Source of the DNA: an uncultured Chloroflexia bacterium
GTDB taxonomy: Bacteria; Chloroflexota; Limnocylindria; QHBO01
Assembly: GCA_963825525.1 (NCBI GenBank)
Contig: CAWGTN010000002.1
Location: 1,696,001 to 1,760,000 of the forward strand
Length of the DNA stretch: 64,000 nt
Direction of reading: 5' to 3'
In this document: positions 13,638 through 38,963 of the stretch, in pieces
Numbering within the stretch: position 1 is the stretch's first letter
How the letters are laid out: the number at the start of each line of letters is the position of its first letter
Program-made: the position numbers and the translations under genes
Notes under the pieces: generated by a model
Seen by the model: only the letters and a program-made list of their open reading frames with translations
Told to the model about the DNA's origin: nothing
Databases searched by the model: none

Positions 13638-13713
<76 letters not shown>

Positions 13714-13835: not shown

Positions 13836-14054
13836 TCACGCCGCCACCCGTCGGGTGGGTCGAAGGCCGAGGATCGCGCCCGCGAGGGTGGCGACCAGTC
13901 GACGAGCCGTTGCGCGGCGGTGGGCCTGGCGGTCGACGGTCATTGAGCCATCGGCACGATCACGGACGACCTTGTGGAGCAGCGCCGCGTGGGCCTGGCG
14001 CTCCGCGTGCACGCTGTCGGCCAGCTGATGGGTCGTGAGATCGGGTGCGAACAT
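13836..14054 (-). CDS. small basic hypothetical protein
   Basis: 72 aa, preceded by a GAGGAGG RBS. Confidence 0.6.
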   Translation of the reverse strand: MFAPDLTTHQLADSVHAERQAHAALLHKVVRDRADGSMTVDRQAHRRATARRLVATLAGAILGLRPTRRVAA

Positions 14055-14309
14055 GTGATGGCCTCCTCGGATTTCGCTGGCACGTCGCCGTGCTCATCGG
14101 TACTGAACTGTCTGCGGTCATGGTCGGCCCCGGGCGGCGATCCGCGCGATCGACTGGCAGACGCCCCGGGCGTCCCCTTGCCGATGCGAACGTGGTCACC
14201 GGTGTCACACGGCACCGGTCGCCCATCCGACAACTCTTGACGGAATCCTCGACCGGAACGAGAGTGTCGGCACGACCGGATTCCAGCCCACCGCCCCGAG
14301 GGATGACCC

Positions 14310-15005
14310 GTGCCGGACCACGAACTCGCCATTGCCAGCCTCCGCCGATGCGCGCTGTTCGCCCACGTCGAAGACGATGGGCTGCGGCTTCTGGTCGGGC
14401 TCATGCGGCCGCGGCGCTTCCGCCGCAACGAGGTGGTGTTTCACCAGGGCGACGTCGGCGATGCGCTCCACATCGTGGTCGAGGGTGGCGTAAAGATCGT
14501 TCTCCCCTCGGCCGAGGGTGACGAGGCGATCATCGCCAGCCTCAAGGCGGGCGATTTCTTCGGGGAACTGGCGCTGCTGGACGGCTCGCCGAGGTCGACC
14601 ACCGCCACCGCGCTCGAGCAGACCGAGACGCTCGCGCTGCCGCGTGACCAGTTCCTTGGCCTCTTGCCGGACGATCCTCGGCTCGTGACGGCGCTCTTGC
14701 GGGCGCTCGCCGCCGAGCTCCGTCGCCTGACCGGCCACGTCGAGGAGCTTCACTTCCTGGACCTCGCGGGCCGGCTCTCCATGCGCCTCGTGCGGCTGGC
14801 GCGCGCGAGCAATCCCGATGCGGCCGACCGAGTCGAGCTCGATTGGCCGTTCACCCAGTCCGACCTGGCCGCGATGATCGGGGCGACACGACAGAGTGTG
14901 AACAAGCTCCTCAGCGGCCTGGTCGACGAGGGCCTGATCGAGATCGATCGCGACACCCTGATCATCGTGGACCTCGCGGCCCTCGAAGCACGTGGGGCGC
15001 GGTGA
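14310..15005 (+). CDS. Crp/Fnr family transcriptional regulator
   Basis: cNMP domain (FHQGD, FFGELALLDG.PRSTTA) and HTH (TQSDLAAMIGATRQSVNK). Confidence 0.95.
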   Translation: MPDHELAIASLRRCALFAHVEDDGLRLLVGLMRPRRFRRNEVVFHQGDVGDALHIVVEGGVKIVLPSAEGDEAIIASLKAGDFFGELALLDGSPRSTTATALEQTETLALPRDQFLGLLPDDPRLVTALLRALAAELRRLTGHVEELHFLDLAGRLSMRLVRLARASNPDAADRVELDWPFTQSDLAAMIGATRQSVNKLLSGLVDEGLIEIDRDTLIIVDLAALEARGAR

Positions 15006-15006
15006 A

Positions 15007-15024
15007 GTGTCCGATTTCAGACAC
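15007..15024. promoter_or_regulatory. palindromic candidate operator upstream of the repeat-peptide operon
   Basis: GTGTC-CGATTTCA-GACAC; -10-like TAGGAT at 15068-15073. Confidence 0.4.
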
Positions 15025-15223
15025 ATGGCATGTCGCATCGGCGCTTCGTCGGCTTGCGAGGCGCCGATAGGATGAGCAAAGCGCGGTACCACTGCCGCCA
15101 CCGCCACAGGAGGGTTCGGATCATGGATCTCCGCCATCGGCAGCAGCCAATGGCATCATCCGCCGGACCAGACCAGCCCGGCGGCAAGTCATTCGAACAG
15201 CGCAGTTGAGAGGGAAACCAGAC

Positions 15224-15592
15224 ATGACGGACCAGCGCGACGACAGGATCGACGACGTCGAAGGCCACGGCTTCCGCAAGGGCGCCACTGACGACAAGCC
15301 CGAAGGCAGCGACTTTCGAAGCAACTCCGACGACGATGTCGAGGGTCACGGCTTCCGCAAGGGCGCCACTGACGACGACGATGTCGAGGGCCACGGCTTC
15401 CGCAAGGGCGCCACTGACGACGACGATGTCGAGGGTCACGGCTTCCGCAAGGGCGCCACTGACGACGACGATGTCGAGGGTCACGGCTTCCGCAAGGGCG
15501 CCACTGACGACGACGATGTCGAGGGTCACGGCTTCCGCAAGGGCGCCACTGACGACGACGACACCGAAGGCCACGTGATGAACCTCAGGTAG
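15224..15592 (+). CDS. multi-cassette acidic repeat peptide (putative precursor) with D-rich VEGH-GFRKGAT units
   Basis: GAGAGGGA RBS; 122 aa; six VEGHGFRKGAT copies, one degenerate unit, terminal TEGH-VMNLR. Confidence 0.85.
   Translation: MTDQRDDRIDDVEGHGFRKGATDDKPEGSDFRSNSDDDVEGHGFRKGATDDDDVEGHGFRKGATDDDDVEGHGFRKGATDDDDVEGHGFRKGATDDDDVEGHGFRKGATDDDDTEGHVMNLR
15329..15550 (+). repeat. 45-bp coding tandem repeat, 5 copies (first is 42 bp)
   Basis: Unit GACGACGACGATGTCGAGGG(T/C)CACGGCTTCCGCAAGGGCGCCACT; variation is synonymous. Confidence 0.95.
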
Positions 15593-15605
15593 CAGGTCGC
15601 TATCT

Positions 15606-16382
15606 GTGGACCAGGAGTCCCAGGCCGCGCTCACCGCACTCGTTGCGGGGGCGCGGCGTTCTGCCGTCGGTCGCCGGTTGCAGGGCGACATCGAGACCCG
15701 GCTGCTGCAGAGCATCGTTGACGCCACCGTCCGCCTGTTCGACGCGGAGGCGGCGTCAATCGCCCTGTTCGAGCAGGACCCCGATCGCCTGGAGTTTCGC
15801 GTTGCGGCCGGTGAACAGGGGGCCGGCGCCGTTGGACTGACCGTGCCGCCAACGCAGGGCATTGCCGGATTTGTCTATTCGACCGGCCAGGCGCTGTCGC
15901 TGTCCGACGTCGCCAACGATCCGAGATTCAACCGCGACGCGGCTGAACAGACCGGATACGTGCCACGCTCGATTGCGGCCGCGCCCCTCCTGGATGAGGA
16001 AGGTGCCGTCGGTGTCCTGCAGGTCCTGGACAAGCGCGGATCGCCGACATTCTCCCTGCAGGACATGGAGCTCCTCGGCGTGTTTGCCGCGCAGGCGACG
16101 GTCGCGATCTCGGCGGCCAAGGTCCAGCGCGACACGGAGCGTCTGCTTCGCTCCACGATCGGGCGGGTCGGGCCGGACCTGGGCGACGAGGCCATCGAGC
16201 AGCTCGTCTCGTCGGCCACCATCGGCCTCGACGTCGACGATGAAGCGCCCTTCTGGCGACTGGTCGACCAGGTGGCGCGACTTCGGTCGCTGAGCGATGG
16301 CGAAGTCGCGCTGGTCACCGACATCCTGTCCGTGGTCGCCGACCACGCCGGACGCCGGCGACGCCCACAGGCTGGGCGGTGA
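15606..16382 (+). CDS. stand-alone GAF domain protein
   Basis: AASIAL, GIAGFVYSTGQ, DVANDPRF, TGYVPRSIAAAPL, VGVLQVLDK, FSLQDMELL. Confidence 0.9.
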   Translation: MDQESQAALTALVAGARRSAVGRRLQGDIETRLLQSIVDATVRLFDAEAASIALFEQDPDRLEFRVAAGEQGAGAVGLTVPPTQGIAGFVYSTGQALSLSDVANDPRFNRDAAEQTGYVPRSIAAAPLLDEEGAVGVLQVLDKRGSPTFSLQDMELLGVFAAQATVAISAAKVQRDTERLLRSTIGRVGPDLGDEAIEQLVSSATIGLDVDDEAPFWRLVDQVARLRSLSDGEVALVTDILSVVADHAGRRRRPQAGR

Positions 16383-17222
16383 CCGACCAGCTTCCGGCAT
16401 GGTCTGAACCATTCGCCGACCCGCGAGGGACCCTGCGCCGTCCGCTGCGACTGCGCGGATTGACACGGCGACTGGGCGTGGGGCGGTTCCACCGGGAAGG
16501 GCATTCGCGTCGGGATCATCGACTCGGGCCTCGAGAACGCCCATCCGAGCCTCAAGGGTCGCGTCGTGCAGAACGTCACCGTCGAGCTGGGTGAGGATGA
16601 GCCCGTTGTCGTGCCCGACGGCGAGCAGGACATGTTCGGCCACGGCACCGCCTGCGGCGGGATCATCGTCGGGCTCGCCCCGGAGGTCGAGCTCGTTTCG
16701 ATTCGTGTGCTCGGCGCCGACCTCCGTGGCAAGGGCGCCGCGTTCGCCGCCGGGCTCGAGTGGGCGATCGAACAGGGGCTGGAGGTCTGCAACCTGAGCC
16801 TCTCCTCGAAGAGCGAGTCGCTGTATCCGGTCTTTCACGATCTCGCCGATCGCGCCTACTTTCGAGGGACGGCGCTGATCAGCGCGGCGAACAACGTTCC
16901 GGCGCCGAGCTATCCGTCGTTGTTCTCGTCGGTGTTCTCGGTGGCCGCTCACGGCGAGCCCGATCCTCAACGCCTCTACTACAACCCGCAGCCGCCCGTC
17001 GAGTTCGGCGCCTGGGGCGTCGACGTTCCGATCGCGTGGAAGGACGGCGGGTCAACCGTGGCGACCGGCAACAGCTTCGCCGCGCCGCACGTGGCCGGTA
17101 TCGTGGCGCTCATCCTGTCGAAGCATCCGGGCCTGAGCCCGTTCGAAGTCAAGGCGATCCTCGCCAGTGTTGCCGACAATCCCGGTCGGCGCGCCTCGCG
17201 GCGCGCGGTCAGCCGGCCATGA
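16379..17222 (+). CDS. cytoplasmic S8 (subtilisin-like) serine peptidase (apparent +1 indel near 16469)
   Basis: After removing one base: ...TRDWAWGGSTGKGIRVGIIDSG; HGTACG; SAANN; TGNSFAAPHVAG. GTGA/ATGA coupling on both sides. Confidence 0.88.
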
Positions 17223-18844
17223 GCCTGGTCTCCACCTACGTCGAGCTGTTCCGACGCAACCACGCTCTGGCGCGTCTGCTGGCGGGAGAGTTCATCTCCG
17301 GCATCGGCGACTGGCTCTACCTGGTCGCCATCCTGGTGGTGGTCTACGCGGAGAGCAATTCGGCGGTGCTCCTCGGCATCGTGGGCGCTGCGCGCATCCT
17401 GCCGTACGTCCTCCTGTCGGTTCCGGCGGGAATCGTGGCCGACCGTTTCGACCGCCGCATGGTGCTGCTGGTGACCGACGTTGCGCGCGGAGTCCTGATG
17501 TTGGTCCTGGTTGGCGCCGTGATCGTGGATGCGCCGACGATCGCCATCGTGGGCCTTTCGATCCTGGCCGCCTGCTTCTCGACATTCTTCGGGCCGGCCA
17601 TCGCCGCGCTGCTGCCGATGCTGGTCGACGAGAGCGACCTCGGTCCGGCGAACAGTGCCTGGGCGACGCTCGACAACGTGGCCTTCATCGTGGGTCCGGC
17701 CCTGGCCGGCGTCCTGTTGGCGAGCGGCGGGCTTGAGTTCGCTTTCCTGCTGAATGCCGTGTCCTTCGGCGTCGTGGCCATCGTCCTGTGGCGGCTGCCG
17801 GTGCCGCGTCGCGCCCCGCCCAGCCAGGAACCGGGCGCCGAATCCTCCGAGGCAGAGCCAACATGGCGACACCTCGTCCGACCCATGGCCGGGCCGTTCG
17901 TTCTCGACTCGGCGACGAGCTTCGTGGGGGGCGGCGTGGGCGTCATGACCGTGGTCATCGCCGTCGACGTGCTCAGCTCCGGTGAGGCAGGCACGGGCTA
18001 CCTGAATGCTGCGACCGGCGTGGGCGGAGTGATCGCCGGGATCGCCGGTGGCGCGCTGCTGGCGCGACGGCTCGGCGTGCCACTGGCCATCGGTGGCGCG
18101 GCGGGAGCGATCGGGCTGGCCTGGCTGGCAATCGCCGGCGATCTCCTGACCGCCATGCTGGCCATCGGGGTGGCGGTGGCCGGCCTGCTGCTCCTGGACG
18201 TGGTGAACACCACGCTCATCCAGCGCATCGTTCCGGATGATCTTCGCGGTCGAGCGATGGGCGTGCTGCAGACGACGTCCGCCGTCCTGTATGCCCTCGG
18301 GTCACTGGTCATGCCGTTGCTGGCGAGCGTGATCGGCGTTCCCTACGTCCTCGTCGGCTCGCTCGTGATCGTGGTTGCCGGGGTCGTCGTTGCCCTCGTG
18401 CTGTCGCCCGCTGAGGGTGTTCCGACCCAGCTCGACCCGCGGCGCGCGCGGTTGCTCGAGCACTCGATCTTCCGAGGGCTGCCGACCGGACGGCTGGAGT
18501 CCGCCGCGCGCCAGCTCATCGAGGTCCCGATGGAGGCCGGCACCGTGATCATTCGCCAGGGCGACGTGGCGGATCGCTTCTACCTCATCGGCGACGGATC
18601 GGTGGCGGTGACGCAGGAGCCCGACGGCGGCGGAGCCCAGGAGCATCTCCGCGACCTCGGGGAGGGAGACGTATTCGGCGAGATCGGCCTCCTGCGCCGA
18701 TCACCTCGCACCGCGACCGTGACCGCCACCAGCAGCGGCACGCTCCTCGCGCTCGACGCGCCGATCTTCCGCGAGCTCGTCGGATCCGGGCCCGGTCTGA
18801 GCACGCGGCTGCTCGACCTCTACCGCGGGGCGCTCGCTCGCTGA
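17219..18844 (+). CDS. MFS transporter (DHA3/MefA-like) fused to a C-terminal cyclic-nucleotide-binding domain
   Basis: FISGIGDWLY, motif A (GIVADRFDRR), QRIVPDDLRGR; C-terminal IRQGD..DRFY, FGEIGLL...RTATV. Confidence 0.9.
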   Translation: MSLVSTYVELFRRNHALARLLAGEFISGIGDWLYLVAILVVVYAESNSAVLLGIVGAARILPYVLLSVPAGIVADRFDRRMVLLVTDVARGVLMLVLVGAVIVDAPTIAIVGLSILAACFSTFFGPAIAALLPMLVDESDLGPANSAWATLDNVAFIVGPALAGVLLASGGLEFAFLLNAVSFGVVAIVLWRLPVPRRAPPSQEPGAESSEAEPTWRHLVRPMAGPFVLDSATSFVGGGVGVMTVVIAVDVLSSGEAGTGYLNAATGVGGVIAGIAGGALLARRLGVPLAIGGAAGAIGLAWLAIAGDLLTAMLAIGVAVAGLLLLDVVNTTLIQRIVPDDLRGRAMGVLQTTSAVLYALGSLVMPLLASVIGVPYVLVGSLVIVVAGVVVALVLSPAEGVPTQLDPRRARLLEHSIFRGLPTGRLESAARQLIEVPMEAGTVIIRQGDVADRFYLIGDGSVAVTQEPDGGGAQEHLRDLGEGDVFGEIGLLRRSPRTATVTATSSGTLLALDAPIFRELVGSGPGLSTRLLDLYRGALAR

Positions 18845-19828: not shown

Positions 19829-20875
19829 GTGGACCACGTCGTCGCCCGCTATGAGCGCATCGTGTCCGATTGGTCCGCCCGGACCGCGGATCCGATGGAT
19901 CTCGTGCGCCTCGCCGCCGACGCCGCGCGGCTGGCCGCGGATGCGAGTCCAGGCTGGTACGGCTCCCAGAGTGGCGCGCTGCGTGCCGCCGCGCTGGCCG
20001 CTGCGGGCCATCCACCGGACATCGCGGTCATCATCGATGCGGATCTGCCGCCGGTCGATCCCACTGCGCCGGCTCGCCTCGCCGATCTGCTGCCCGGTGA
20101 CGGGCCGCTCCACGAGCGCATCCATCGCCATCGCGCGACGATGTTGATCCCGCCGGACCGGCTCGCCGAAGTTGCGGCTCGGCTGCTGCGATTGTTCCAG
20201 CGCCGAGCGACCGAGGACCTTGAGCTCGGCCAGGGCGTGCCGCTGGAGATCGGTCTCGCTCGACCGCGGAACGCCGGACCGGCAGAGGTGGAGTTGCCTG
20301 CAAGTTCGCCCCGCCTGAAGCTCGACTCCGGCCGAGCCTGGACCGCCGAGGCGTTGGCGCGGTGCATCACCGGGCGGGGAGTCCCCGGCGACTACCTCTT
20401 CGCCACGCTCCGGCCCGCGAGGCCGTCGTGGCATCCCAGCCCCCAGGACACCGTGGACCATGGGCTGCGCGCCGTAGGTCGCGAGGTGCTGCTGAGCGAC
20501 CACGAGCTGGGTCACGAGTTGCAGCGCATCGGGCGAGGCATCGGCGTGCCATGGGACGCCGAGCTGATCCTCGGCGTCTGGCGCGCAACCGATGATCTTG
20601 CGCCGGCACGGGCGGCGGCATTGGCAGCGGCAGTCACCCGCCACGAGCGCCGAACTCGAGTCCCTGGGCATGGCGCCGACGGTCGGCCGCCTCCGTCGTC
20701 GAGCGGGCTTCGGACCCGCTGGAGCGGGCACGCTGGGTGGCGAGGGCGGCCGGCCCACCCCTGGTTCGTCGGTGGCTGACGGTCACCGGCCAGACCGTCG
20801 GACTCGGACGCCTGGTGCGCGAACATCTCGTCCCGTCCCAGCTGCGCGTGGAGGTCGGGAATGCCGGAGCATTGA
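19829..20875 (+). CDS. hypothetical protein (probable indels in the 3' third)
   Basis: Long ORF with a leaderless-type promoter; plausible C-terminus LVRRWL...RLVREHLVPSQL lies in another frame. Confidence 0.45.
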
Positions 20876-22041
20876 GCGGTCCGTCGACGTTCTCCTGGTC
20901 GGAGGTGGCGTCGCGTCGGTTCGATGCGCCCGCGCATTGCGGCGCAATGGCTTCGATGGTTCGATCCTGCTGGTCGGCGACGAGGAGCGGCCGCCATACA
21001 ACCGCCCTCCGCTCAGCAAGGAGCTCCTGCGCCTTGATCTGCCGGACGACCTGGTCGATGCCGAGCCCGATGCCTGGTATCGGCGCCGATCGATCGATGT
21101 GATGACCGGCACCGCCGTGCGCACCCTGGAGCCGGAAGGACGGTCGGCGGTGCTCGCGGGTGGCGACACCATCCGTTTCGGCCGATGCCTGCTGGCCACC
21201 GGGGCCGAGCCTCGCCGCCTGTCGACTCCCGGGGCCGAGGAGGCCATGCTGCTGCGAACGTTCTCGGACGCTCGCAGGTTGAGATCCGCGGCAACGTCGA
21301 TGGAGCGCGGGGCCACCGCGGCGGTCATCGGCGGTGGATTCATCGGTCTGGAGGTGGCTTCCGGTCTTGCAGAGCTCGGCCTGCGTCCCATTGTCCTGGA
21401 GCAGGCCGAGAGGCTGTGGGGAGGCCGCCTCGGACGACTTCTCGAAACCTGGGCAGTCGGACCGGCTGCGATCCGCCGGCATCGAGGTCCGGTTCGGCGC
21501 CGAGGTCACTCGCCTCGACCCCGGGTCGATCCATGTCGGCGACGAACGCATCGAGGTCGGAATGGCCGTTGCGGGCATCGGCGTGCTCCCACGCTCGGAT
21601 CTTGCCGCGAGCGCCGGATTGGAGACCGACGACGGCGTGGTGGTGGATGCCGGCGGCCGGACGAGCCACCCGGCGATCTGGGCGGCCGGTGATGTCGCGC
21701 GATACGGGCCACTTCGCGTGGAGCATTGGCACGCGGCCCGAGAGTCCGGTGAGCGTGCTGGCCTCTCGATGCTGGGCCTACCTCTGCCCGACGTTCCGCC
21801 GCCGTGGGTCTTCACCGAGGTTGTCGGGATGGCCGTGGACATCGTCGGCGACGCGGCGGAATGGGACGACGAGCAGTGGCTGATTCCCGATCGCCTGCTC
21901 GTCCACACCAAGGCGGGCAGGGTCGTGCGGATCATCTCCATCGGGTCGGAGATGCCAGCGGGCGTCCTGCGCGAGGTGGTCGCCGCGCGCGAGTCAACCG
22001 AGTCGGTCAGCGCCCGGGCGGCCAGGCTGAACCGCCAGTGA
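20861..22041 (+). CDS. FAD-dependent NAD(P)H:ferredoxin reductase-like oxidoreductase (apparent indels near 20866 and 21460)
   Basis: VLLVGGGVA, PYNRPPLSK, LLATGA, IGGGFIGLEVA, then TSHPAIWAAGDVA and RVEHW in the next frame. Confidence 0.85.
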
Positions 22042-22065: not shown

Positions 22066-23808
22066 ATGCACGTGCTAGCCTCCGGTCACCACTACCCGCA
22101 CCGGGGGGCTCCCTTGCCCCGTCGACACACCGCTCGGACGCTGCCTCTCGCGGTGCTTCTCGTCCTCATCGCGGCCATCGGGCCCGCCCCGCGCCCCGTC
22201 GCGGCAGCCACCGATCGCCTGCCCGATCTGCGGATGGCACGGCTGGCCAACTTCTACACCGAGAACTCCGGCGGGGAACGGCGCCTCAGATTCCAGACGA
22301 TCATGACGAACGAGGGAGCCGGTCCGCTCGAGGTTCGCGGTACGCGAGACAACCTGACCCAGCCGCACCTGCGCACTCGGCAGGCGATATACGACACGGC
22401 GGGCGGCGTCCGACTTCGAGACACCCGCGCCCTTGCCGAGTATGCCGTGGATGGGCACGACCATTGGCACATCCAGGGGGTCATGCTCTACCAGCTGTGG
22501 TCCGCGAATGGGGTCGTGCGGCGCGGAACCAAGGTCGGGTTCTGCTTCCTCGATAGCTATCGGTACAACCTCGCGCTGCCAGGAGCGCCGCAGTCACAGG
22601 TCTACCCGGAACACCTGTGCGGTGATCGAGGCGACCTGACGAATCGGATGGGACTGTCCGTCGGCTGGGGCGACGACTACCCGGCCAACTTTGCATACCA
22701 GTGGATCGACATCTCGACGCTGCCGCCCGGCGACTACACGGTCCAGGCCCGGGCTGACGAGCAGAACTGGTACCTCGAGTCGGATGAGACGAACAACTGC
22801 GCCTACGCGCGGCTCAGGATCACGGCGTCGAATGGACCGGTCACGGTGCTTGGCTCCGGCCTGACCTGTGCGAAACCGCCGGCGTCGACGGCCCGGGTGG
22901 AGCGCCAGTACGGGAACAATCGGTACGAGACGGCCGCCGCAGCATCCGAGGACGCATTCAGCCCCGGGGTGCCCGTCGTGTACGTGGCCAGCGGCGCGAA
23001 CTTTCCCGATGCGCTGGCGGCCGGGGCCGCGGCCGGGTTCCAGGCCGGCCCGGTGGTCCTCGTGGCCAGGAACTACCTCCCGGCCCTCGCGATCACGGAG
23101 CTCGAGCGGCTCGATCCGCAGCGGATCGTCATCGTGGGCGGGACATCCATGATCTCCGAGTACGTCGCGTCACTGATTCGGCCTTACCAGACTGGAGGCG
23201 GGCTCACGCGGCTTGCAGGCACCGATCGGTACGGGACGGCCGCCATGGTCTCCTCGGTGTTCGCGCCCGGGGTCGACACGGCGTACGTCGCCAACGGACT
23301 GAACTGGCCGGATGCGCTGGCCGCCGTTCCCCACGCGGCACGTGCGGGCGCCCCGATCCTCCTCGCACCCACCACGAGCCTCCCGACGGCGACGCGCGAC
23401 GCGCTCGTCCGGCTTCGCCCGCATCGGATCATCGTCCTCGGCGGAACCGCCTCGATTGCGGCCAACGTCCAGGGCGCGCTGGATGCCTACGACCAGGGTG
23501 GGGGAGTCCTGCGCATCGCCGGCGCCGACAGGTATGCGACTGCCGCCGCCGTATCGAAGTTCCATCTCCCGGCCGGAGCCCCGATGGCCTACGTGACCAC
23601 CGGCGAGAACTTCCCGGATGCCCTCGCCGCGGGTGCGCCGGCCGCAGTCAGGGGAGCGCCGACCATCCTTGTCCGTACCGCCGCGGTGACCGCCCCGGCC
23701 GCCACGGAGCTTGAGCGCCTCAACCCGGCGCGGATCATCATCCTCGGTGGGCCGAAGATCGTGAATCAGGCTGTATTCAATCGCATGCTCGACTACGCGG
23801 ACGGCTGA
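22066..23808 (+). CDS. secreted lysyl-oxidase-like domain protein with three cell-wall-binding repeat 2 (CWB2) domains
   Basis: Signal peptide; HDHWH Cu site, KVGFCFLD, GWGDDY...QWIDI, ESDETNN; three G.DRY.TA...FPDALA...PILL...IIVLGG repeats. Confidence 0.85.
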   Translation: MHVLASGHHYPHRGAPLPRRHTARTLPLAVLLVLIAAIGPAPRPVAAATDRLPDLRMARLANFYTENSGGERRLRFQTIMTNEGAGPLEVRGTRDNLTQPHLRTRQAIYDTAGGVRLRDTRALAEYAVDGHDHWHIQGVMLYQLWSANGVVRRGTKVGFCFLDSYRYNLALPGAPQSQVYPEHLCGDRGDLTNRMGLSVGWGDDYPANFAYQWIDISTLPPGDYTVQARADEQNWYLESDETNNCAYARLRITASNGPVTVLGSGLTCAKPPASTARVERQYGNNRYETAAAASEDAFSPGVPVVYVASGANFPDALAAGAAAGFQAGPVVLVARNYLPALAITELERLDPQRIVIVGGTSMISEYVASLIRPYQTGGGLTRLAGTDRYGTAAMVSSVFAPGVDTAYVANGLNWPDALAAVPHAARAGAPILLAPTTSLPTATRDALVRLRPHRIIVLGGTASIAANVQGALDAYDQGGGVLRIAGADRYATAAAVSKFHLPAGAPMAYVTTGENFPDALAAGAPAAVRGAPTILVRTAAVTAPAATELERLNPARIIILGGPKIVNQAVFNRMLDYADG

Positions 23809-34079: not shown

Positions 34080-34776
34080 CCACCGCCCGGTCCACCACGG
34101 AGCCGAGCTGCAGGTCCACGGTGTAGTCGATGCCGCAGTCGCCCTCCTCGTTGCCGCGGCGGTAGCTGAGCACGACCCGGCCTTCGTCCGGCGGTGGAAG
34201 CCAGCGTGCCGACGAGCGGAAGGCGTCGCTCGGCGGCGCGTCGTCAGGGTCCGCACGCAGGATGGCATCGGCGGCGTCGAGCGTTGGCTGGTCGAGGCCG
34301 CGGAGCAGCGAGCTCACGACGGTGACAGCGCCGGAGCCCGGCGTCACCTCGAGGATCCACAGGTCCTCGTCGCTCGCCCCCGCCAGTCTGCCGGACACCT
34401 CGAGCGTGCAGGTCTGCGGCCCACAGGATCCGCCAGCGACGATGGCCGTCCACGGTTCTCCGTCGAACGTCCAGATCAGATCGGCGACGGCGGAGGCGAT
34501 GGCCAGGCTCTCGAGTTGATCCGGGACGCCACCGGGCCGCCGCGACTCGCGCATCGCGTCCAGGATCTCGGTGCCATCAAACGGGCGACCAGGCGCCACG
34601 ACGATACCGGGCGAACCCGGCGTGGACTGGGTCGGCTCGGCGGTCGAGACGGTCGGCGACGGGTCGGAGGCCATCGGGCTCGCGGCACTCTGGGTCGGCG
34701 AGGGGCCGGATGGGGCGGCGGAACACGCGGCCAGCATGAGCCCCACCGTCAGGATGACGGGGACCCGTCGCGTCAT
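34069..34776 (-). CDS. hypothetical lipoprotein
   Basis: LAAC lipobox, Pro/Ser/Thr linker, four further Cys. Confidence 0.75.
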   Translation of the reverse strand: MTRRVPVILTVGLMLAACSAAPSGPSPTQSAASPMASDPSPTVSTAEPTQSTPGSPGIVVAPGRPFDGTEILDAMRESRRPGGVPDQLESLAIASAVADLIWTFDGEPWTAIVAGGSCGPQTCTLEVSGRLAGASDEDLWILEVTPGSGAVTVVSSLLRGLDQPTLDAADAILRADPDDAPPSDAFRSSARWLPPPDEGRVVLSYRRGNEEGDCGIDYTVDLQLGSVVDRAVVSC

Positions 34777-37736
34777 GGCTTCCCGAGCAGGGCGTTCAGG
34801 TCCGACACGACGCCGTTGCCGATGACCGATGTGCCGCCGATCAGCCAGGTTCGCGGCGGGAACAGTCGCTGCAGCTCCGGGCGTGCCACCGATGGCACGG
34901 TCGTCGGACCGACGAGGAGCAACGGAGATCCCGCACCGCCCGCGGCAGGCACCGCGGCCAGCGCATCGGGGAAGTTCATCCCGGTCGCGAGATAGGCGGC
35001 CGGCGGTCGGTTGAAGAACGCCTTCGAGACGGCGACCGCGGTCGCGAATCGGTCGGCTCCGGCGAGCCTGGTGACCGGTCCGGTCGTGTAGGACTGCAGG
35101 ATCTGCTTCACACCATCGGTGACGGCGCTCGTGCCACCCAGCAGGTAGATGGCCTGCGGCCTGAGCCGCAGGAGCTCGTCGCGAACCGCCTGTGGGACTG
35201 CTCCTCGCTCCGTGAGCAGCACCGGACCGCCAAGCTTCGCCGCCGCCGGTCCGGCGGTGAGTGCGTCGGGGAAGCTCGCTCCGGTCGCGACGAAGACGGC
35301 CGGAACACCCGGCCCGAAGGCGGATCGGCTCACGGCGGCCGCGGTGGAGTAGCGGTCGGATCCCGCCAACCGAGCGACGGTCCCGGTCGTGTAGGCATCG
35401 AGGGCGGCGGCCACGGACTGGCTGACCACCGAGGTGCCGCCCAGGACGACGATGCTCTGCGGCTTCAGTCGGGCCAGCTCGTCTCGCGTTGCCTGCGGAA
35501 GCGACCCGGGCTCGGTCAGAAGGATCGGTCCCTTCCGGATGGCAGCCACCGCGCCCGCGGCGAGAGCGTCAGGGAAGTTTCTGCCGGTGGCGACATAGGC
35601 GACCGCCGTTCCCGGTCCGAAGTGGTTGCGGCTCACCGCGGCCGCGGTCCCGTATCGGTCGGAGCCCGCAACCCGGATCGGCGTGCCGACGCTCCACTTG
35701 GACCACGCCAGCCCATAGCGCTCCGATGTGCCTTCGAATCGCGTCTGGCGCACCTCGATCCGTGCCGTCCCGCTGCGCGTCGCGGTGAACTCGACCCATT
35801 CGTAGTTGTTGTCGAACGTGTATGAGCCCTGCAGCGACCCGTCCGGCATGACGATGCGCAGGTCGAGGTCGGCGGCCAGCCGGTCGGTGCGGTTCGAGAT
35901 CGTCGTCCCCGTTGTCCGGCTGTTCCAGGTGAGGACGACCTTCACCTTCTGTCCGGCGATCACCGAGATGTCCTGGTTCAGCGCCTGGCCGCTGGTCAGG
36001 CTGCCCATGCGGTAGCCGCCGTACCCAGCGTCACCGTTGGTGAGGAGTCGATTCGCCCACAGCGCCGATGCCGTTCCGGTGCCCTCGTGATCGCTGTTGC
36101 GAGACCCGTCGGGCATCGGGGTCCGGTTGATCGCCGCGGCCATGATGATCGCGCGGGTCGCCTCGGGGCGAAGGGAGAGGCTGGGCAGGCGAGCGATGAT
36201 CTGCGCCGCGATGCCGGCAACGATCGGGCTCGCGATGCTGGTGCCGCTGGCTCCGAGGCCGTTGGCCGTTCGCACCGATGGTGCGGGCGCGGAGACATTC
36301 GGCTTGTTGAAGTCACCGTGCGAGTTCCATGCGGCCCCGGACGGATCGCGGTAGCTGGCGCCGTTCGATCCGGGGTAGTACCAGAGCCGATCATCGTTGC
36401 GGCCCGCCGTCCCCCGATCGTCGATCCCGCCCACCGTGAGCACGTTGTACGCGGTGCCCGGCGACAGGACGTCCCAGTGCCCGAAGGTCACCAGGTTGCC
36501 CGACGCGGCCACTGCCAGCCGCCCGTCATCCTGAACCATCGAGTCGAAGTAGCGGCGGGCCTCCTCGGAGCCGCTGGCGGTGTCCTGGCCGATGCTGGCA
36601 TTCACGATATCGGCGTCGCCGCCACCCGCGCTGGCTGCCCAGTCCGCCGCTTCAATGATCTGCCGATCCCGTGTCAGCGATGCCCCGCCGCCGCCGGTCG
36701 ACGCGCTCACGATGACTGCGCCCGGAGCGACGCCCGGATAGGTCGAGCTCCGGCCGGCGATGGCCCCGGCGACCCACGTGGGATGGTCGAACGTCCCGCT
36801 GCCGGTGTAGGCGAGCGACCCGCTGGCGCTGTGCGAGGCCACCACCCGACCGGCAAGGTCACCACTGTTGCGGACGTTGTGGTATTCGACCACGGCGACC
36901 CGGACACCCGTCCCCTGGTCCTCGCCGCCACCGGTCCAGTTGGCCTGGACCGCCGGCCCGGCGCTCGACATGGTGGTCGCCCAGCTGCGCTCGAGCCCGA
37001 TGGTGGCGACCCCGGAGGCTGCTGCGAGCTCGTCGACCCGGTCAGCCGCAATGTCGATGTAGGCGAGCGGTGCGGTGGTCGACACGTAGCCAACCGTCCC
37101 ACCGAGCTCACGCACGGTCGCGGTGAGCTGGTCAAGCGCGGCAGCGCGGGCATCCGCCCGCGCTGCCTCCAGCTCGGCCCGGATCCTGCGTGCCGTCTCG
37201 AGGTCGGGCGCCATCGGCATGTCGCCCTCCCAGACCAGCTCCGGATGGCGGTCGATGACAGACTGTGCGGCGGCGTCCGTATCAACGTCGAGCCACACCC
37301 CGACCGGGACCGGGGCGTCACTCGCGGCTGTCGAGAGCCTGCGATCAATCGCGGCCACCAGCTCATCGTCGGCCTTCAGCGTCATGGGGCTGAGCGATCC
37401 GCGAGCAGCCTTCAACTGCCGCGCGGGCAAGTCGTCGCCGGCCAGGGTCCCGGTCTGGCCATCTCGATACACGATGTGAAGCTCGCCCGTTCGCAGGTCC
37501 ACGTACTTCGCCGCCCACAGGCTGGATCCCTCCGGGCCGACAGCCGACGCTCGCTCGTACACCAGCTCGTAGTCGGTGGGGTTGCCCCCGAGCGAGTCAC
37601 TGAGATGCCGCTGGCCCTGGACCTCGAGGGGCTCCGCCGCGGCGGTGTGTCGGGGAACCGCGAATGACGTCACGAGCAGCACGCCAGCGATGATCAGCTG
37701 TCGCGCGCGCTGCTCATGGTGCTCGGTCTGACGCAT
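34773..37736 (-). CDS. secreted S8 peptidase with beta-sandwich and three CWB2 domains
   Basis: Signal peptide, prodomain, VAVVE / DHPTWVAG / AASGN / SGTSIASP, DLDL domain, three CWB2 repeats. Confidence 0.88.
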   Translation of the reverse strand: MRQTEHHEQRARQLIIAGVLLVTSFAVPRHTAAAEPLEVQGQRHLSDSLGGNPTDYELVYERASAVGPEGSSLWAAKYVDLRTGELHIVYRDGQTGTLAGDDLPARQLKAARGSLSPMTLKADDELVAAIDRRLSTAASDAPVPVGVWLDVDTDAAAQSVIDRHPELVWEGDMPMAPDLETARRIRAELEAARADARAAALDQLTATVRELGGTVGYVSTTAPLAYIDIAADRVDELAAASGVATIGLERSWATTMSSAGPAVQANWTGGGEDQGTGVRVAVVEYHNVRNSGDLAGRVVASHSASGSLAYTGSGTFDHPTWVAGAIAGRSSTYPGVAPGAVIVSASTGGGGASLTRDRQIIEAADWAASAGGGDADIVNASIGQDTASGSEEARRYFDSMVQDDGRLAVAASGNLVTFGHWDVLSPGTAYNVLTVGGIDDRGTAGRNDDRLWYYPGSNGASYRDPSGAAWNSHGDFNKPNVSAPAPSVRTANGLGASGTSIASPIVAGIAAQIIARLPSLSLRPEATRAIIMAAAINRTPMPDGSRNSDHEGTGTASALWANRLLTNGDAGYGGYRMGSLTSGQALNQDISVIAGQKVKVVLTWNSRTTGTTISNRTDRLAADLDLRIVMPDGSLQGSYTFDNNYEWVEFTATRSGTARIEVRQTRFEGTSERYGLAWSKWSVGTPIRVAGSDRYGTAAAVSRNHFGPGTAVAYVATGRNFPDALAAGAVAAIRKGPILLTEPGSLPQATRDELARLKPQSIVVLGGTSVVSQSVAAALDAYTTGTVARLAGSDRYSTAAAVSRSAFGPGVPAVFVATGASFPDALTAGPAAAKLGGPVLLTERGAVPQAVRDELLRLRPQAIYLLGGTSAVTDGVKQILQSYTTGPVTRLAGADRFATAVAVSKAFFNRPPAAYLATGMNFPDALAAVPAAGGAGSPLLLVGPTTVPSVARPELQRLFPPRTWLIGGTSVIGNGVVSDLNALLGKP

Positions 37737-37838
37737 CGGCCTCCTGCCGTATGACAGCGTATGACAGTGTGCCATGCCCGGATCAATCGTGAGGTGCGGC
37801 GGGACACCCGGCAATGGGCATTCGGTTAGGCTTCGACC

Positions 37839-38963
37839 ATGACCACTGAAGCAGGATTCGGACCTCGAACGCACCGGGCGCGGCTTTCTGCCGCCGCTGC
37901 CGCCGCGGCGGAGCGCGGTATCGACGCGTTGCTCGTCACACCCTCCCCCGACTACGCGTATCTGCTGGGCTATCGCGCTCCGGCCATGGAGCGCCTGACC
38001 TGTCTCGTCGTGCCCGCCGATGGCGACGTGTCGCTGGTGCTCCCGCGTCTCGAGGAGCCCCTGGCGCGACACGAGCTCGGCGAGCTTGCGGATGAGATTG
38101 CGCTGGTGCCGTGGGACGAGGTCGATGATCCGATTCAGCTGGTGAGGGCGCTGGTGGCCGGCGCACGACGCGTCGGGCTGCAGGACCAGATGTGGGCTCG
38201 CTTTGCGCTCCGGCTGCGCGCGGCCCTCGATCCCGTCGAGCTGGTCGAGGCCGGACCAGCGATGAGCGCCCTCCGCCGTGTGAAGACCAGCGAGGAGATC
38301 GACCGACTGCGGGCGGCGGCGGGTGCGGCAGATGCGGCGATGGCGGCCATCTCGACGGAGCCGCTCGCCGGACGCACCGAGATGGAGGTGAGCCGCCGCA
38401 TCGGTGAGCTGCTGGTCCAGGCCGGCCACGACACCGCCGACTTCGCGATCGTTGCCTCCGGCCCGAATTCGGCGAGCCCGCACCATGTTCCGGGGGCGCG
38501 GGTGATCCAGGCTGGAGACGCGCTGGTGCTCGACATCGGGGGTTTCCGCGACGGGTACGGCAGCGACACCACCCGGACCGCCTTCGTCGGCGAGCCCGAC
38601 GCCGACTTCGCCGCGCTGTTCGAGGTGCTCCGTGCCGCCCAGGCCGCCGCGTGCGATGCCGTGGCGCCAGGTGTGTCGTGCGCGGAGATCGACGCAACCG
38701 CTCGCCGCATCATCGACGACGCCGGCTACGGGGAATCGTTCATCCACCGCACCGGCCACGGCATCGGAGTGGAGACCCACGAGGAGCCCTACCTCGTGTC
38801 ATCGAACCCGGAGCCGCTGGTGGAGGGCCACGCCTTCAGCATCGAGCCCGGAATCTACCTCCGCGACCGATACGGCGCGCGCATCGAGGACATCGTGGTC
38901 TGTACGGCGACCGGTGGCGAGCGCCTCAACACCGCCTCGACGGAGCTCATCCGGGTCGACTGA
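37839..38963 (+). CDS. Xaa-Pro aminopeptidase/dipeptidase (M24 family)
   Basis: SGPN.ASPHH, DIGG...GY.SDTTRT, HRTGHGIG.ETHEEP, SIEPG, RIEDIV. Confidence 0.93.
   Translation: MTTEAGFGPRTHRARLSAAAAAAAERGIDALLVTPSPDYAYLLGYRAPAMERLTCLVVPADGDVSLVLPRLEEPLARHELGELADEIALVPWDEVDDPIQLVRALVAGARRVGLQDQMWARFALRLRAALDPVELVEAGPAMSALRRVKTSEEIDRLRAAAGAADAAMAAISTEPLAGRTEMEVSRRIGELLVQAGHDTADFAIVASGPNSASPHHVPGARVIQAGDALVLDIGGFRDGYGSDTTRTAFVGEPDADFAALFEVLRAAQAAACDAVAPGVSCAEIDATARRIIDDAGYGESFIHRTGHGIGVETHEEPYLVSSNPEPLVEGHAFSIEPGIYLRDRYGARIEDIVVCTATGGERLNTASTELIRVD

Follow-up and report, generated by a model that had tools for sequence, protein, structure and literature searches.

PatE of the cyanobactin pathway is a multi-core precursor, and the eukaryotic convertases (those acting on yeast alpha-factor, fungal KEPs, and neuropeptide polyproteins) are subtilases that dice a tandem-repeat precursor into short unmodified peptides. 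Among bacterial peptides that are made by ribosomes and modified after translation (RiPPs), ElxP and AmyP, which are cytoplasmic leader peptidases, and cyanobactin PatA/PatG are subtilases of peptidase family S8 with a five-residue acidic/aliphatic site; PMC10885120 gives this as (D/E-5)(L/V-4)X2(Q-1) for recognition by ElxP and as G(L/V)E(A/P)S for PatA, which cuts after it. In NHLP leaders, according to PMC2887384, Val or Leu stands at position 10 and Gly-Gly at positions 12 and 13, giving a V-x-G-G end. Here we analyze a five-gene cassette with a cytoplasmic S8 protease and a similar five-residue site, DVEGH, in a stretch of 64,000 nucleotides (the window) from an uncultured Chloroflexia bacterium (contig CAWGTN010000002.1, positions 1,696,001 to 1,760,000). 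Its genes are as follows.

14310..15005, forward strand: Crp/Fnr-family regulator gene; phosphate-binding residues kept, recognition helix R-Q, not R-E.
15224..15592, forward strand: peptide gene; 122-residue acidic repeat product.
15606..16382, forward strand: GAF gene; the product is a separate protein whose GAF domain is of the PDE/CyaB type and is extended at the C terminus.
16379..17222, forward strand: gene for a cytoplasmic subtilase (S8) of ∼280 residues, without signal peptide or propeptide.
17219..18844, forward strand: gene for a major facilitator superfamily (MFS) transporter with a C-terminal cyclic nucleotide monophosphate (cNMP)-binding domain; 12 hydrophobic segments, Tap/EntS/H+-antiporter-like.

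The cassette is real and conserved in uncultured soil bacteria. The layout given in an earlier note on this DNA, five co-oriented genes in the order Crp-peptide-GAF-S8-MFS, was found in place, and the 13-nt gap between the peptide and GAF genes and the GTGA and ATGA overlaps at the GAF/S8 and S8/MFS junctions were verified. Of 36 genomes of the same genus, 31 have an S8 orthologue, with 83% identity or more except in G022, where it is in split pieces; the full order holds in the 19 genus loci covered at 11-15 kb, for each of which the crp-GAF spacing was checked. One unpublished genome, G034, contributes a single row to the 31-of-36 count, to the 24-locus operator and 21-of-24 extension counts below, and to the set of repeat units, and its removal alters no conclusion. 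Among named homologues, those nearest to the S8 protease come from Candidatus Limnocylindria (Chloroflexota), and the family was found in 46 of 401 Chloroflexota genomes. Outside the genus we assembled 120 loci, made up of 40 of the 49 listed Chloroflexota S8 places and the best 80 of 560 relatives from a collection scan, these 80 being mostly from Actinomycetota and Chloroflexota. The GAF gene adjoins S8 in 117 of the 120. A strict filter found the peptide in 42 of the 81 loci with at least 5 kb on both sides (wide-flank loci); looser filters and inspection classed the 81 as 50 His, 5 Gln, 12 Tyr/Phe, 13 without a motif peptide, and 1 with a partial S8, the Tyr, Gln, and Asn labels and 8 of the His labels being assigned by hand. 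A motif peptide therefore accompanies 67 of the 81 S8 loci, which backs the pairing of a precursor with a dedicated S8 protease that the earlier note had proposed and runs counter to the outcome it had named as fatal, S8/GAF homologues with no such peptide beside them. A converse scan, starting from a DNA pattern for two tandem motifs, matched at least 121 metagenome stretches; among the 80 examined, 61 contain some cassette gene and 44 contain S8 or GAF, and S8 or GAF is present in nine of the ten stretches with at least 2 kb on both sides. No viral contig contained the tandem motif.

The window peptide carries seven D[VT]EGH motifs and consists in part of four identical 15-residue units and one with a single-residue change; it has no Cys and no hydrophobic segment, and its net charge is -22. 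The motif codons vary synonymously from copy to copy among the repeats, which shows the peptide to be coding. Cutting after every His would turn it into a 27-mer, five 15-mers (four of them identical and the fifth nearly so), and a piece from each end. When the strict filter was applied to 152 segments (16.8 kb) of its own genome, the single positive was the cassette locus itself. Across 97 loci the units are highly diverse (247 distinct among 251 locus-unit pairs), with a median length of 16 residues (5th-95th percentile 13-38); 244 of the 251 contain Lys or Arg, 99 a dibasic pair, and 1 a Cys, and a dominant core is held in common by two genomes only. Such diversity fits identity signals, and it would fit unconstrained spacers equally well. 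Upstream of the peptide gene lies a further segment.

15123..15209, forward strand: decayed N-terminal extension, a 28-codon upstream open reading frame (ORF); in most relatives an in-frame conserved segment ending in an extra motif.

This extension is present in 21 of the 24 loci tested, with 917 synonymous against 159 non-synonymous pairwise codon differences. Because it is missing from G017, G001, and G060 and decayed in the window, processing would seem not to need it. PF21627 (BTH_I2711-like, a 71-position model) scored 33.5 bits against a cut-off of 27, a sum over 16-residue repeats none of which passes alone; as a genome search with this model gave no match anywhere, the own genome included, and the peptide has neither a PDB match nor a paper, we took this as a repeat-driven match. 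NCBIfam gave no match to the window peptide, and its ESM Atlas matches (0.88-0.89) are to unnamed clusters and serve as leads only.

The closest relatives of the cassette are RiPP clusters. Those with NHLP/Os1348 leaders and LanL, and the aroma-sacti clusters (NF045560), contain the same S8 subfamily at 48-55% identity to the genus enzyme, usually the same GAF partner, and also cNMP-fused exporters and cyclases; they are nearer than the cyanobactin loci, whose logic the earlier note had invoked. Nine loci carry a class III/IV lanthionine synthetase alongside the S8 subfamily, and the synthetase of the cultured Ktedonosporobacter rubrisoli passes the LanL cut-off (676 versus 650 bits). In eight of the nine, a small ORF has an NHLP/Os1348-like leader (matches below cut-off) followed by [DE]-V-x-G-Y and a Cys core, and in the ninth (L080) no precursor was seen. 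Two aroma-sacti loci, L054 and L068, score 61 bits against 30 with NF045560 and combine D-V-Q-[GA]-Y with radical SAM genes, so that in both cluster types the precursor leaders end in [DE]V-x-G-[YF]. Since the same S8 and GAF pair is found with these leaders, DVEGH is most likely a leader-peptidase site, cut after His, and we consider cleavage of the peptide by the S8 protease quite probable. By the NHLP leader pattern, G-Y and G-H line up with G-G. The register itself is inferred: the cut is placed after His because the ElxP and PatA motifs share that register, and a cut between Gly and His was dropped in view of these motifs (PMC10885120) and of the NHLP logo (PMC2887384).

Unlike these clusters, the window has no LanL or radical SAM gene, no helical leader, and no Cys core, and carries the site seven times; a search for LanL in the window found none. 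The lack of a tailoring enzyme noticed earlier in the window extends to every His/Gln/Asn-type locus, none of which has a LanL or aroma-sacti radical SAM homologue. The fuller anatomy of the Tyr-type clusters suggests a RiPP ancestry for the cassette, which looks like a former lanthipeptide-type maturation system that is now without modifying enzymes and would make strain-specific short peptides under cyclic-nucleotide control. Three loci (L099, L102, and L109) have intermediate forms, with a helical leader followed by many E-V-A-A-H repeats. None of the 13 ABC-cNMP transporters in these clusters has the C39 motif that was looked for. In Ktedonosporobacter rubrisoli the class IV cluster (L086:4714-8798) contains the precursor, LanL, S8, and a cyclase-AAA-TPR gene, with no adjacent GAF gene. 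At L058:8858-9151, L059, L061:7815-8120, and L083:11830-12300, ORFs that lack annotation also resemble precursors, having a helical leader and D-V-Q-G-[YF] with cores rich in aromatic residues; no tailoring enzyme was recognized there. Near-canonical CRP sites lie upstream in L061 and L068.

The protease has the features of an active subtilase, namely the Asp/His/Ser triad and the oxyanion Asn: D48, H88, N172, and S232 are invariant in all 109 His/Tyr/Gln-type rows. It scores 97 bits against PF00082, and its AlphaFold2 (AF2) model has a mean predicted local distance difference test (pLDDT) score of 92.8. No hydrophobic stretch is present at the N terminus, in keeping with the earlier claim of a protease without a signal peptide. 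The best matches in both sequence and fold are engineered subtilisin BPN' variants with a missing or altered calcium loop; calcium-loop-deleted subtilisins fold without their propeptide, and a similar alteration here would explain the missing prodomain. Among representatives, the S8 domain is fused to GAF (five proteins), kinase, LuxR, MerR, and ABC domains, fusions known from proteins alone; one GAF-S8 fusion, P0256, looks like a frame artefact. In one clade (L095, L096, L099, L100, L112, L115, L117, and L127) an M3 oligopeptidase gene lies beside S8 and is a candidate trimming enzyme. Of all alignment columns, residue 142 distinguishes His from Tyr/Phe loci best, with Ser in 85 of the 87 His-type rows and Gly in all 15 Tyr/Phe-type rows. 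This residue aligns to the Gly of subtilisin's S-L-G strand, which we take to be Gly127 in the wall of the S1 pocket. In a tree made by a quick method from 138 of 140 loci (two partial S8 sequences were left out), the midpoint split, which has weak support, leaves all Tyr/Phe rows on the same side; the Ser/Gly change is one event, whose direction the tree does not give.

In the window itself the S8 frame is interrupted by one surplus base at ∼16467-16469. Because this base is not present in five of five aligned relatives or in the main contig of four of four sequencing runs (four studies, near-identical strains), and because two neighboring genes (19829-20853 and 20874-21891) are likewise frame-broken relative to their relatives, which fits scattered assembly indels, the surplus base is most likely an assembly error. 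The protein analyses were therefore made on the orthologue from G017, which is intact and shares 91% identity across the catalytic part.

The GAF protein has PDB matches that include 1ykd (1e-16) and PDE2A/5/10, and its C-terminal part has no match in the ESM Atlas. The protein is probably the partner and gate of the cytoplasmic subtilase. A cyclase-AAA-TPR gene lies within 24 of the 120 loci, and the host genome has 13 class III cyclase domains. Of the 55 His/Gln-type wide-flank loci, 39 include the MFS-cNMP gene.

Measured against described classes, the cassette falls outside each one tested. The LanKC/LanL synthetase and the Cys plus Ser/Thr core of class III/IV lanthipeptides are absent from the window, and the NF045560 leader domain and radical SAM maturase of aroma-sacti/StsA RiPPs are found only in L054 and L068. 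Compared with cyanobactin PatA/PatG, the cassette protease scores 17.6 bits with TIGR03895 (cut-off 421), and the cassette has one protease, a single motif type per repeat (Pat cores lie between distinct N- and C-terminal recognition sequences), no AYDG-type second site, and no heterocyclase. A GAF partner and a Crp operator set it apart from the ElxP, AmyP, and PatA/PatG systems. QhpE, which removes the QhpC leader, is likewise a short cytoplasmic subtilase and its model (NF049966) is the nearest NCBIfam model of similar length, but the cassette enzyme scores 110-113 bits, below the cut-off of 165, and no qhp genes lie nearby. Double-glycine/NHLP systems have a Gly-Gly site and a C39 transporter, whereas the cassette has a G-H site and an MFS exporter. 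The eukaryotic convertase precursors are an analogy only, as the cassette is cytoplasmic with no signal peptide, its site is His rather than dibasic, and export would be by MFS. A PADLOC/Pycsar check for anti-phage systems gave generic cNMP-domain matches of 24-33 bits and a partial subtilase match only, with no full-length match to a cyclase and cNMP effector pair. The literature searched (most subscription journals and supplements lie outside its coverage) holds no description of a named system with this architecture, as the earlier note had supposed, and no paper characterizing the S8 protease of the LanL and aroma-sacti clusters. On this comparison the cassette appears to be undescribed and RiPP leader-peptidase-like with a multi-core precursor.

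Control by the Crp regulator can be read from three elements.

14217..14242, forward strand: Crp-type box with one mismatch to TGTC-N8-GACA, just 5' of a TTGACG -35 element.
15008..15034, forward strand: operator TGTC-N8-GACA (15008-15023) and a third TGTC half-site (15031-15034).
15068..15073, forward strand: TAGGAT, a -10-like hexamer 44-45 nt past the box and part of the peptide promoter.

Directly 3' of the crp stop codon, the exact TGTC-N8-GACA box is present in 24 of 24 genus loci, as are the third half-site 7 nt past it and the -10-like hexamer at 44-45 nt, the hexamer variants having been chosen after inspection; a sigma-70 scan did not include the peptide promoter among its matches. 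In loci from other genera, 41 of the 72 peptide ORFs have the exact box ahead of them, compared with 24 of 1500 random segments from the same loci. It is not enriched genome-wide (9 sites versus 17.8 expected), and none of the other eight exact genomic sites is clearly ahead of a related gene. The box sequence follows the Crp recognition helix. Where this helix is R-Q, as in the cassette, or R-P, all 48 loci have the TGTC box (at most one mismatch) and none has the canonical site, whereas R-E loci, with the helix of Mycobacterium tuberculosis Rv3676, have the canonical site in five of five and the TGTC box in none; Crp-less loci have the TGTC box in 5 of 13 and R-V loci in 1 of 2. This covariation agrees with the known DNA contact of that helix position. 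Together with the conserved box it backs the earlier proposal of Crp control, and it argues that the peptide gene is the regulated output of the cassette Crp. The box upstream of crp is kept within one mismatch in 15 of 20 loci tested, making autoregulation of the crp promoter probable. As the 218-nt gap 3' of crp contains a separate promoter-like region, the cassette probably forms two transcription units, not one. Like cyclic AMP (cAMP)-activated CRP, the regulator keeps the phosphate-binding cassette G-E...R-S/T (G in 92, E in 89, R in 84, and S/T in 87 of 92), but it has R-Q and TGTC-N8-GACA in place of the canonical R-E helix and TGTGA-N6-TCACA. A Gaiellaceae-type clade (L134, L138, L141, L143, L149-L151, and L156) has the peptide, S8, GAF, and mostly MFS-cNMP without Crp; these loci mostly lack the box, and several have an extracytoplasmic function sigma factor gene nearby.

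Other features of the window surround the cassette. A small ORF (13836-14054, reverse strand) that diverges from crp is kept in several genus loci and may be served by the same promoter box as crp; it has a His-rich N-terminal part and then an R-R-L-hydrophobic signal-like segment, and the end of the window copy diverges from its relatives. A tRNA-Gly(CCC) at 13638-13713 (reverse strand), the only match in an Rfam scan, lies upstream of the cassette and adjoins it in some relatives too. GC content shows no shift around the cassette. A lysyl-oxidase-like CWB2 protein (22066-23808, forward strand) and a large S8 protease with cell-wall-binding CWB2 repeats (34776-38780, reverse strand) are unrelated to it.

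Taken together, the best explanation, to which we give a little better than an even chance, is a RiPP-derived peptide-processing module without tailoring enzymes that is switched by Crp, cut by S8, and exported by MFS. In this mechanism Crp would bind TGTC-N8-GACA and turn on the peptide-GAF-S8-MFS unit; the cytoplasmic subtilase, probably partnered and gated by GAF, would read D-[VT]-E-G-H as P5-P1 and cut after His, releasing four identical unmodified 15-mers, each with a basic N-terminal half and an acidic tail ending in His, along with a few variants. The MFS-cNMP protein would then probably export these products as strain-specific signal or effector peptides. Nothing supports macrocyclization, which the earlier note had entertained in the form of a protease-cyclized product.

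Several observations weigh against this explanation. No motif peptide was found in 13 of the 81 wide-flank S8 loci. The covariation of Ser/Gly with motif type comes down, in essence, to a single deep split whose root is weakly supported, and it has exceptions in L081 and L090, which are His-type with Gly at residue 142. The five R-E loci belong to one family, which reduces the helix/box covariation to a single switch. The Crp C-helix differs from that of Rv3676 at three ligand-side positions, and the N-K-F-D-E signature of the GAF protein is kept only in part (Asp for Asn in 129 of 129, Lys or Arg in 114, and Asp in 104), so cAMP is not established as the ligand. Beyond the motif, the units share neither length (13-38 residues) nor sequence, no variable receptor was found within the cassette, and the motif is present in two other protein types, which would fit a general protease tag equally well. 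Export by MFS-cNMP is the weakest step, and we would put it at even odds. No orthologue was found with this query in G061, G062, G067, G070, and G080, which carry the rest of the cassette and are 95-98% complete; their best MFS matches are 33-36% identical, compared with 51-58% for sister-genus orthologues, and four of the five have a full-length paralogue at 32-36%. Because these five near-complete genomes gave no orthologue, the exporter is, by this comparison, not obligatory for the cassette.

The alternative that survives best, though we think it unlikely, is regulated intracellular proteolysis, in which DVEGH is a protease tag, other tagged proteins are the targets, and the Crp-induced repeat peptide titrates the protease and so serves as a decoy or timer, its fragments having no role of their own. 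Conservation limited to the motif and the acidic run, an exporter that can be dispensed with, and the fusion of the S8 family to kinase, LuxR, and MerR domains would all be expected, as would the two other tagged protein types, several of them behind a TGTC box. However, a search of the own genome yielded no second tagged protein, related clusters group precursor, S8, and exporter, and MFS is translationally coupled to S8 here and so often kept within the locus. The first of the two protein types (L214:827-1396, L177:4860-5942, L045:7121-7771, L049:7225-7959, and others) has two or three DVEGH motifs before an RRxLL-hydrophobic segment, often behind a TGTC box. These proteins are membrane-anchored or secreted, and cleavage could unmask a signal peptide; an AF2 model of the membrane-anchored type (pLDDT 54, predicted TM-score 0.30) is uninformative. 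The second type comprises small proteins (L046:1248-1445, L163:1970-2194, L200:497-700, and L240:1956-2177) whose final DVEGH precedes a conserved charged helix; some of them are fused to a repeat peptide.

Less probable still is a peptide that works without being cleaved, either as a multivalent acidic/His ligand that inhibits or activates the S8-GAF pair or as a metal-binding disordered protein. The nearly constant His beside Asp/Glu runs and the strong negative charge are what such a role would call for, and a protease without propeptide makes an inhibitor in trans conceivable. Yet Gln, Asn, Tyr, or Phe replaces His in related loci, the Tyr/Phe form sits exactly at the lanthipeptide leader-core boundary, and a substrate-site residue of S8 tracks the His/Tyr switch. 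Decay of the module in this strain, which the frameshifted protease, the out-of-frame upstream segment, and the lack of a GAF, Crp, or tandem motif match in S8-less relatives such as G002, G010, G065, and G077 (searched without a positive control) might suggest, is very improbable given the four runs without the surplus base, the other frame-broken genes of the assembly, and the intact S8 of G017 and G001, which likewise lack the extension.

If the reading as a processing module derived from RiPP maturation is right, abundant soil bacteria that are uncultured harbor a widespread and so far undescribed peptide system whose substrate site, operator, and ancestry can be predicted. A set of class IV lanthipeptide and aroma-sacti clusters would also gain a candidate leader peptidase; leader removal is poorly known for these classes (PMC8960859), and this prediction is testable in the cultured Ktedonosporobacter rubrisoli. 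A propeptide-free, sequence-specific subtilase, perhaps switched by a small ligand, would make a useful tool. More speculatively, and as a tentative proposal, the cassette could be a bacterial counterpart of prohormone-convertase systems with its origin in double-glycine lanthipeptide maturation, in which a cyclic-nucleotide-gated GAF-subtilase cuts a portable D-V-E-G-H tag, turning genome-specific repeat precursors into secreted identity peptides and, in relatives, taking tagged N-terminal blocks off helix effectors and masked signal peptides. If true, such a system would be a peptide-signaling layer common to abundant soil Chloroflexota and Actinomycetota.

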